From the NCBI RefSeq assembly GCF_044647545.1, contig NZ_CP172818.1: a stretch of DNA of 64,000 bases; one strand, written 5' to 3'. Below the pieces are notes generated by a model. The model saw only the letters and a list, made by a program, of their open reading frames with translations, was not told the DNA's origin and searched no databases. Source of the DNA: Escherichia coli. GTDB lineage: Bacteria > Pseudomonadota > Gammaproteobacteria > Enterobacterales > Enterobacteriaceae. Within the stretch, counting starts at the first letter, position 1; the number at the start of each line of letters is the position of its first letter. This document shows, in pieces, positions 32,728 through 33,590 of the stretch. The position numbers and the translations under genes are program-made.

Positions 32728-32766
32728 ATTGATAATCATTTTCAATATCATTTAATTAACTATAAT
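32728..32766 (+). promoter_or_regulatory. sodA promoter region: Fur-box-like GATAATCATTTTCAATATCATT and TATAAT -10
   Basis: Motifs read directly upstream of sodA; sodA is a known Fur-repressed gene. Confidence 0.45.
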
Positions 32767-32823
32767 GAACCAACTGCTTACGCGGCATTAACAATCGGCC
32801 GCCCGACAATACTGGAGATGAAT

Positions 32824-33444
32824 ATGAGCTATACCCTGCCATCCCTGCCGTATGCTTACGATGCCCTGGAACCACACTTCGATAAGCAGACCATGGAAAT
32901 CCACCACACCAAACACCATCAGACTTACGTCAACAACGCCAACGCGGCGCTGGAAAACCTGCCAGAATTTGCCAACCTGCCGGTTGAAGAGCTGATCACC
33001 AAACTGGACCAGCTGCCAGCAGACAAGAAAACCGTACTGCGCAACAACGCTGGCGGTCACGCTAACCACAGCCTGTTCTGGAAAGGTCTGAAAAAAGGCA
33101 CCACCCTGCAGGGTGACCTGAAAGCGGCTATCGAACGTGACTTCGGCTCCGTTGATAACTTCAAAGCAGAATTTGAGAAAGCGGCAGCTTCCCGCTTTGG
33201 TTCCGGCTGGGCATGGCTGGTGCTGAAAGGCGATAAACTGGCGGTGGTTTCTACTGCTAACCAGGACTCCCCGCTGATGGGTGAAGCTATTTCTGGCGCT
33301 TCCGGCTTCCCGATTCTGGGCCTGGATGTGTGGGAACATGCTTACTACCTGAAATTCCAGAACCGCCGTCCGGACTACATCAAAGAGTTCTGGAACGTGG
33401 TTAACTGGGACGAAGCAGCGGCACGTTTCGCGGCGAAAAAATAA
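32824..33444 (+). CDS. sodA: Manganese superoxide dismutase
   Basis: ORF track 32818-33444; trimmed to [18 protein letters not shown] start giving 206 aa. Confidence 0.95.
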
Positions 33445-33499
33445 TCATTTGCCGCCTGCTGCAATGAGGCGTTTACGCCGCATATCAGCTTAAAAAATG

Positions 33500-33528
33500 A
33501 ACCATCGCCAACGGCGGTGGTTTTTTTG
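33500..33528 (+). terminator. Rho-independent terminator after sodA
   Basis: Hairpin CCATCGCCAACGGCGGTGG followed by TTTTTTT. Confidence 0.5.
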
Positions 33529-33560
33529 TGATCAATCTCAAAATAAAAACAATGATCCGA

Positions 33561-33590
33561 TAAAAATAAAACAGTGTTTCAATTGATGTG
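33561..33590 (+). promoter_or_regulatory. Candidate KdgR operator upstream of kdgT
   Basis: AAAACAGTGTTTCAATT near-palindrome resembling the KdgR box; assignment from memory of the consensus. Confidence 0.3.

Follow-up and report, generated by a model that had tools for sequence, protein, structure and literature searches.

A Fur operator at the sodA promoter and a predicted KdgR operator upstream of kdgT on either side of Escherichia coli sodA

The stretch of E. coli DNA analysed here, called the window and 64 kb long, carries the genes sodA and kdgT in the order rhaS, rhaR, rhaT (minus strand), sodA, kdgT, yiiM, cpxA (minus strand). This order was taken from RefSeq, in which both K-12 and a strain with 100% identity are annotated. 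Over positions 32500-33760, ST648-type E. coli strains (e.g. NZ_CP008697.1) are 100% identical to the window, and the same bases were matched in 5425 of the 5426 complete E. coli genomes. Identity to K-12 reaches 99% in the intergenic region before sodA and 98% in the one separating sodA from kdgT. The two genes and the terminator lying between them are:

32824-33444, plus strand: sodA coding sequence, Mn superoxide dismutase, 206 aa (RefSeq annotation match).
33499-33529 (hairpin 33499-33523), plus strand: intrinsic terminator of sodA, an 11-bp stem followed by a T run (terminator scan).
33704-34687, plus strand: kdgT coding sequence, 2-keto-3-deoxygluconate:H+ symporter, 327 aa (RefSeq annotation match).

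Conservation was assessed on 80 sodA loci from Enterobacterales species representatives, 79 of which were usable. In 13 of the 79, belonging to E. coli, several Citrobacter, Phytobacter, Pluralibacter, Superficieibacter and other Enterobacteriaceae, sodA is followed by kdgT. A hairpin with a T run comes after sodA at the same place in all 13 of these sodA-kdgT loci. Scanning positions 32400-33800 against Rfam returned nothing near the gathering scores, the best hit being STnc150-like with 19.9 bits for a threshold of 60.

A first-pass annotation had singled out two strings in this region: GATAATCATTTTCAATATCATT, followed by TATAAT, upstream of sodA, read as a Fur box, and AAAACAGTGTTTCAATT, upstream of kdgT, read tentatively as a KdgR operator. 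All of them were recovered. The first string occupies 32731-32752 and the second 33568-33584, each being present in a single copy in the window, and TATAAT is found at 32761-32766, its sole copy within 32700-32830. Upstream of sodA and around its start codon, the following elements were located:

32717-32771, no strand: part of the sodA promoter that Fur protects from DNase I in published work (mapped from NC_000913.2).
32725-32749, no strand: Fur operator core, two overlapping 19-bp Fur boxes in a 6-bp register (matrix, consensus and conservation).
32739-32766, plus strand: sigma-70 promoter of sodA, with -35 TTTTCA at 32739-32744, a 16-bp spacer and -10 TATAAT at 32761-32766 (promoter scan, 10 of 12 matches).
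32746-32760, minus strand: ArcA box GTTAATTAAATGATA, with 1 mismatch to the 15-bp direct-repeat consensus GTTAATTAAATGTTA.
32806-32839, plus strand: pairing region of the FnrS sRNA on the sodA mRNA, -18 to +16 around the ATG (published, PMC3415461 supplement).

Matrix scans for Fur and KdgR, proposed in the first-pass annotation as a check of its two calls, were run on the 64 kb and place both sites far above chance. For the Fur matrix, Table 3 of Chen et al. 2007 (PMC2189734) supplied the 11 footprinted K-12 regions other than sodA, whose sequences were taken from NC_000913.3. With this leave-sodA-out matrix, the box GATAATCATTTTCAATATC at 32731-32749 scores 17.3 bits and the box GGCATTGATAATCATTTTC at 32725-32743 scores 16.2 bits, the second and third best values in the window respectively; a weak third site appears at 32737. 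In 200 simulated 64-kb sequences, two sites each reaching 14 bits were never obtained at a spacing of 6 bp. The classical 19-bp Fur consensus GATAATGATAATCATTATC, searched with up to 3 mismatches, has a single match in the 64 kb, at 32731-32749 with 3 mismatches, for an expectation of 0.02 from shuffled sequences. The top matrix score in the window does not belong to sodA: it reaches 18.8 bits at 60414, about 1 kb inside the rhsC coding sequence. This match is regarded as a product of chance because 5 of the 200 simulations reach 18.8 bits, and it illustrates that single matches of this strength can arise without function. The first-pass annotation thus had the Fur site at the right position, within slightly too narrow boundaries, since the cluster starts 6 bp further upstream, at 32725.

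The same DNA has been footprinted. In Table 3 of PMC2189734, the sodA Fur footprint of Tardat & Touati 1993 is given as NC_000913.2 4098726-4098780. We mapped it to 32717-32771 by applying an offset of 1977 bp between genome versions and one of 30513 for the alignment of K-12 with the window; the 1977-bp offset reproduces the published position of -87 relative to the sodA start. The footprinted span is identical in the window and in K-12, the nearest difference being located at 32716 (A here, G in K-12). The sodA site served as a training site for the model of Chen et al. 2007, who describe three overlapping sites at sodA (3 walkers over 31 bp), the strongest having 23.3 bits at 4098746, i.e. 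-87 from the ATG (PMC2189734). This strongest site maps to about 32737, between the two matrix matches (32725 and 32731). Fur therefore binds the sodA operator sequence, as established by the published footprint on identical DNA, and GATAATCATTTTCAATATCATT is the core of the footprinted operator. Repression of sodA by Fur is textbook knowledge (PMC4676285), and sodA is a member of the Fur-2 iModulon.

The sodA promoter is the sole sigma-70-like promoter found by the consensus promoter scan in 32500-33760, and transcription would start near 32773. Its predicted -35 hexamer is overlapped by the Fur cluster. The ArcA box in turn extends from the 3' part of the cluster into the promoter spacer; it is the only match in the window to the consensus GTTAATTAAATGTTA quoted in PMC8470723, for 0.06 expected. 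As a consequence, the Fur reading of GATAATCATTTTCAATATCATT holds for a string that is in fact composite: its last seven bases belong to the ArcA box, which has four of these, 32746-32749, in common with the Fur array. This sharing of bases fits the title of the footprinting paper, which refers to competition between Fur and ArcA at sodA. It also fits the remark of Park et al. 2013 that ArcA was not seen at sodA in vivo, probably because it was outcompeted by Fur.

Among the usable loci, an unaltered copy of GATAATCATTTTCAATATC sits at -92 to -100 relative to the ATG in Escherichia, Salmonella, Enterobacter, Citrobacter, Kluyvera, Shimwellia, Yersinia, Hafnia, Rahnella and several Serratia, and is degraded in Pantoea, Erwinia and Tatumella. 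An alignment of 22 genera delimits a conserved block running from GGCATTGATAAT through TATAATG and continuing past the -10 into the 5' UTR; further upstream the sequence is not conserved. Positions 32739-32766 are invariant in the 22 genera, and the conservation of the Fur box is inseparable from that of the overlapping -35 region and ArcA box. Within E. coli, a 61-bp stretch of the sodA promoter is identical in 5074 of 5424 genomes. A conserved hairpin of the sodA 5' UTR proved no more stable than shuffled sequences (z = -0.45).

Between the sodA terminator and kdgT, the analysis points to the following elements:

33527-33542, no strand: additional and weaker CRP-like core TGTGATCAATCTCAAA, located 60 bp upstream of the site at 33584-33605 (core with 1 mismatch, 13/22 to the full consensus, partly conserved).
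33543-33561, no strand: weak second KdgR-like box ATAAAAACAATGATCCGAT, containing AACAnTGATCC (12.1 bits, fourth best in the window).
33565-33583, no strand: predicted KdgR/PlaR operator AATAAAACAGTGTTTCAAT, a 19-bp near-palindrome centred at 33574 (matrix, consensus and conservation).
33584-33605, no strand: CRP-like site TGATGTGGTTTTGATCACTTTT, core TGTGG-N6-TCACT (16/22 to the CRP consensus).
33624-33629, plus strand: candidate -10 of kdgT, TATCTT (T, A and final T invariant in 13 loci).

The string AAAACAGTGTTTCAATT corresponds to the centre and right side of the near-palindrome AATAAAACAGTGTTTCAAT, whose first base is at -139 and whose centre is 130 bp upstream of the kdgT ATG. The motif was tested empirically with a matrix independent of the KdgR consensus. 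Upstream regions of K-12 kdgK and kduI carry the same motif, in the form of AATGGAACACTGTTTTAAT, AATGAAACATTGTTTTATT and AACGAAACAGTGTTTCACT, and the matrix was made of these three sites only, kdgT being left out. Candidate KdgR boxes upstream of eda and edd were weak, with 5 mismatches, and were excluded. The kdgT site scores 28.1 bits with the kdgK/kduI matrix, which is the top of the window by 14.6 bits, the runner-up having 13.5 bits. The maximum obtained in simulations was 12.5 +/- 2.1 bits, and none of 200 simulations reached 28.1 bits. The tentative KdgR call is thus borne out by a matrix that owes nothing to the consensus motif. A degenerate KdgR consensus, which reportedly originates from Rodionov et al. 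2004, was also searched with up to 2 mismatches and yielded one match, at 33565-33583 with 1 mismatch, for 0.06 expected. A printed KdgR consensus was absent from both the Dickeya paper and the pathogenicity-archipelago paper that mention KdgR matrices.

A KdgR-type box is kept 139-157 bp upstream of the kdgT ATG in about 11 of the 12 other sodA-kdgT loci, with differing letters. In Superficieibacter, the best match of the scan is a different, weaker stretch, and the box itself is visible in the alignment. When the kdgT spacers of the 13 loci are aligned, the box stands out as one of four conserved islands, the remainder having diverged. The other islands are AACAnTGATCC (33548-33558), TG...GATCACTnTTnT (33587-33605) and TAnnnT, which reads TATCTT here (33624-33629). 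The kdgR gene itself lies outside the window and is present in 5424 of the 5426 complete E. coli genomes.

Published work documents kdgT as a KdgR target (PMC6958661, PMC6892915, PMC4784465). Its mRNA rises in a kdgR knockout (PMC6958661), it is over-expressed upon deletion of kdgR (PMC6892915), and kdgK and kduI are co-regulated with it (PMC6958661, PMC6892915). With the footprint on sodA, the statement that both sites fit known regulation, made in the first-pass annotation, agrees with the literature. The kdgT region is also a genomic SELEX target of PlaR (YiaJ), for which the box ATnTGAAACnnnGTTCAnTT is quoted, and co-regulation of kdgT by PlaR and KdgR has been proposed, the two regulators cross-regulating each other (PMC6958661). 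The quoted PlaR box is nearly identical to the kdgT operator described here. No published footprint of the E. coli kdgT operator was found in the literature; the assignment of the palindrome as a KdgR operator is supported by the motif, its conservation and the expression data.

No other sequence in the window, which also holds the CRP-dependent rha and cytR promoters, matches the CRP consensus as well as the CRP-like sequence TGATGTGGTTTTGATCACTTTT. Searching the CRP core consensus with up to 2 mismatches gave 25 matches window-wide for 25.4 expected, which is chance level. This count cannot by itself support a CRP site, and we relied instead on the full 22-mer, on conservation and on spacing. 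The TG and the GATCACT of the CRP-like site are invariant in the 13 loci. From the T of TCACT (33598) to the T of TATCTT (33624) there are 26 nt, which is the spacing of a CRP site centred at -41.5. Moreover, kdgT is among the new CRP targets recovered by genomic SELEX (PMC3105977). The match to the 22-mer, the fixed and conserved spacing and the SELEX result together suggest that transcription of kdgT may start from a CRP-dependent promoter of class II, in which the KdgR box would have its centre near -62. No entry for a kdgT start site is contained in the genome-wide TSS dataset of PMC3415461.

Within E. coli, the kdgT operator region is much more variable than the sodA promoter. The operator differs from that of K-12 by a single base, at 33575 (T here, C in K-12). 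With T, the site comes closer to a palindrome and scores 28.1 bits, versus 23.4 bits with the C of K-12. The 61-bp stretch with T is identical in 2052 of the 5424 matched complete genomes (38%), and the K-12 61-mer is found in 1815 (33%). O157:H7 operators carry one or two further changes and score 21.1 and 16.4 bits. In one strain, a 53-bp deletion between two CGTTTC repeats removes the right edge of the operator, the CRP-like site and the -10.

In our interpretation, sodA is very probably flanked by two independent and already characterised repressor operators, a Fur array at its own promoter and a KdgR operator serving kdgT. On the sodA side, iron-loaded Fur would occupy the overlapping boxes at 32725-32749, across the -35 and the upstream edge of the promoter, and would thereby exclude RNA polymerase, so that Mn-SOD would be made when iron is scarce. 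We infer this occlusion step from the positions of the elements. The ArcA box at 32746-32760 sharing bases with the Fur array, the two repressors would compete for the same DNA. On the kdgT side, KdgR, and in vitro also its paralogue PlaR/YiaJ, would occupy 33565-33583 as long as 2-keto-3-deoxygluconate (KDG) is lacking and kdgT would then be silent; as inducer, this compound would release the repressor from the operator. The kdgT promoter would comprise the CRP site at 33584-33605 (centre -41.5) and the -10 at 33624-33629, with a start near 33636. The KdgR box near -62 would abut the CRP site, and repression might proceed by blocking CRP and/or the alpha-CTD contact and not by covering the -10. 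We also infer a possible role for the weak KdgR-like box ATAAAAACAATGATCCGAT, whose centre precedes that of the main box by 22 bp; this box (33543-33561) and the CRP-like core at 33527-33542 may both take part at kdgT. Taken as a whole, a kdgT region in which the KdgR/PlaR box sits between two CRP-like sites (-41.5 and -101.5), with a weak box two turns upstream, which is repressed by anti-activation instead of occlusion, and in which natural operator polymorphism could set a lineage-specific basal KDG uptake, is a tentative proposal, and we consider it possible without giving it the better chance.

Other explanations were weighed for each part of this picture. That AT-rich intergenic DNA produced both matches by chance could be argued from the AT-richness that the two consensus sequences have in common with such DNA. 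This is contradicted by the single occurrence of each consensus where 0.02 (Fur) and 0.06 (KdgR) were expected, by the absence of the KdgR score and of the paired Fur configuration from all 200 simulations, and by the way both sites keep their position across genera; we hold chance to be practically out of the question. A narrower objection concerns sodA, whose conserved block could be maintained as a core promoter with ArcA, IHF or other sites, the likeness to a Fur box being incidental. The Fur cluster does overlap the -35 and an ArcA box with only 1 mismatch, the block does run through the -10 into the 5' UTR, and a stronger Fur matrix match does lie inside a coding sequence. Against this, Fur protects exactly this DNA in vitro and the site belongs to the training set of a published model (PMC2189734), Fur-dependent repression of sodA is established (PMC4676285), and the failure to detect ArcA at sodA in vivo has been ascribed to Fur outcompeting it. 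Conservation upstream of the -35, through GGCATTGATAAT, is moreover explained only by the Fur array. An incidental likeness is thus very improbable, and the block is best read as a genuine Fur operator merged with the promoter.

For kdgT, the identity of the repressor and the mode of repression both have competitors that deserve more weight. The palindrome might chiefly serve PlaR (YiaJ), the second IclR-family repressor acting on plant-sugar-acid genes, KdgR having a secondary or indirect part. The kdgT region is recovered with PlaR in genomic SELEX, the box quoted for PlaR almost matches the operator, and the authors of that study themselves propose co-regulation by PlaR and KdgR, with cross-regulation (PMC6958661). 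Yet kdgT mRNA rises when kdgR is knocked out singly (PMC6958661) and in a kdgR-deleted strain (PMC6892915), and kdgT is cited as a classical KdgR target (PMC4784465). The 28 bits were moreover obtained with a matrix drawn from the KdgR-regulon genes kdgK and kduI, although both are also PlaR targets. A leading role for PlaR is therefore unlikely, with perhaps one chance in a handful or slightly better, and KdgR stays the preferred regulator. KdgR could also repress kdgT by simple occlusion of a promoter placed further upstream, with TTGATG as -35 (33583-33588), TATTGA/ATTGAT as -10 (33605-33611) and a start near 33617. In that arrangement the operator would span -52 to -34, and the CRP-like site would fall inside the core promoter, its GATCAC block not being a functional class II CRP site. 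Citrobacter species do have a perfect TATAAT at the position aligned with the TATTGA of E. coli, the right edge of the operator touches TTGATG, and many repressors cover the -35. However, the E. coli hexamer is without the key final T, five other genera are without a -10-like sequence there, and the promoter scan found no match for this arrangement. The TAnnnT at 33624-33629 and the TG...GATCACT are invariant in all 13 loci at the exact class II spacing, and CRP binds the kdgT region in genomic SELEX (PMC3105977). We consequently judge simple occlusion at kdgT to be rather unlikely, and continue with the CRP-dependent promoter.

Both strings of the first-pass annotation are already-described repressor binding sites, and the observation is correct but ordinary: the Fur operator of sodA, its overlap with ArcA, the control of kdgT by KdgR and the binding of PlaR and CRP upstream of kdgT are all in the literature. 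The case indicates that true operators can be picked out by a reader of the letters alone, with a significance that extends little beyond annotation. It also establishes that a strain of ST648 type keeps the K-12 control region of sodA intact, with its Fur and ArcA boxes, promoter and FnrS pairing site. Only the putative promoter architecture of kdgT and the operator polymorphism would go beyond annotation, both being modest additions. Through variation in the operator, gut- or plant-associated strains could differ in the ease with which they import 2-keto-3-deoxygluconate.

The sodA operator resembles its K-12 counterpart in the footprinted sequence, in the overlapping cluster and in the -87 position, and no difference of substance separates the two. 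The kdgT site shares with the KdgR operators of E. coli kdgK and kduI and of the Dickeya/Erwinia pectinolysis genes a 19-bp near-palindromic organisation, with AAAC-N5-GTTT arms flanked by A/T. Like them, it lies upstream of a KDG-pathway gene derepressed in kdgR mutants and would answer to an IclR-family repressor with KDG as inducer. It departs from them by its left arm, which reads AAAACA instead of GAAACA. Its half-sites hardly differ from those of the PlaR (YiaJ) box of K-12 (Shimada et al. 2019), and kdgT, kdgK, kduI and eda are shared targets; PlaR nevertheless differs from KdgR in having yiaK as its strongest target and in its inducer. Finally, the predicted kdgT promoter can be set beside class II CRP promoters with an adjacent repressor. 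Examples of such promoters are the interplay of CytR and CRP at deoP2 and that of CRP and KdgR at Erwinia pectinase genes. The likeness lies in the class II spacing to a promoter with a weak -35, in the second CRP-like core 60 bp upstream and in the repressor box placed between the two; unlike these known promoters, the kdgT architecture is deduced from sequence and conservation alone.

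The strongest match to the Fur matrix in the 64-kb window, GATAATGCATATAATTTTA at 60414-60432 (18.8 bits), lies about 1 kb within the rhsC coding sequence and is probably there by chance, because a score of 18.8 bits was reached in 5 of 200 simulations. At sodA itself, the Fur box is degraded (GGCATTGATAACCCTTTTCCCGATC, at most 8 bits) in seven comparison loci from Pantoea, Erwinia and Tatumella, despite retention of the -10 element and its flanks. These sequences suggest that in the Erwiniaceae sodA is only weakly, or no longer, under Fur control.

Within the rhaT-sodA spacer, towards rhaT, the following feature was detected with one mismatch:

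32666-32681, CRP-like core GGTGATTTGCTTCACA

This core, presumably the CRP site of the rhaT promoter, is also kept in Salmonella and Enterobacter. The sodA 5' UTR (32773-32815; ACTGCTTACGCGGCrTTAACA...GCCGCCC) is conserved throughout the Enterobacterales, and its GCGGC and GCCGC segments could pair; the fold of this UTR was no more stable than those of shuffled sequences (z = -0.45). The rhaT gene (31506-32539, minus strand) is split into two ORFs of 266 and 78 aa, and the annotation of the identical ST648 record lists it as a pseudogene with a frameshift. Rhamnose import through RhaT may be absent in the ST648-type lineage. In the same record frvB is likewise frameshifted. Separately, a gene annotated as 'carbohydrate porin' (23878-25272) is located between frvA and rhaM in the window strain; K-12 is not known to have a gene at this position.

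In the kdgT control region, GATC (Dam) sites occur four times in an 85-bp stretch (33528-33612). Two of them, at 33554-33557 and 33596-33599, flank the KdgR box and are invariant across the 13 aligned sodA-kdgT loci; the GATC sites around the box may simply be portions of protein-binding sites. In one of 5424 genomes, NZ_CP048603.1 (strain ChlosBP-23-1), 53 bp have been lost between two direct repeats of CGTTTC. This deletion, aligned to window positions 33582-33635, takes away the operator's right edge together with the CRP-like site and the candidate kdgT -10 element.

The KdgR operator upstream of kdgT also varies among E. coli. Two O157:H7 operators with additional changes, AATAAAACAGCGTTTCAGT and AATAAAACGGCGTTTCAGT, have their matrix scores lowered to 21.1 and 16.4 bits, respectively. 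At position 33575 the window carries a T and K-12 a C, and the 61-mers containing these alleles were found identical in 2052 (T) and 1815 (C) of the 5424 matched genomes.
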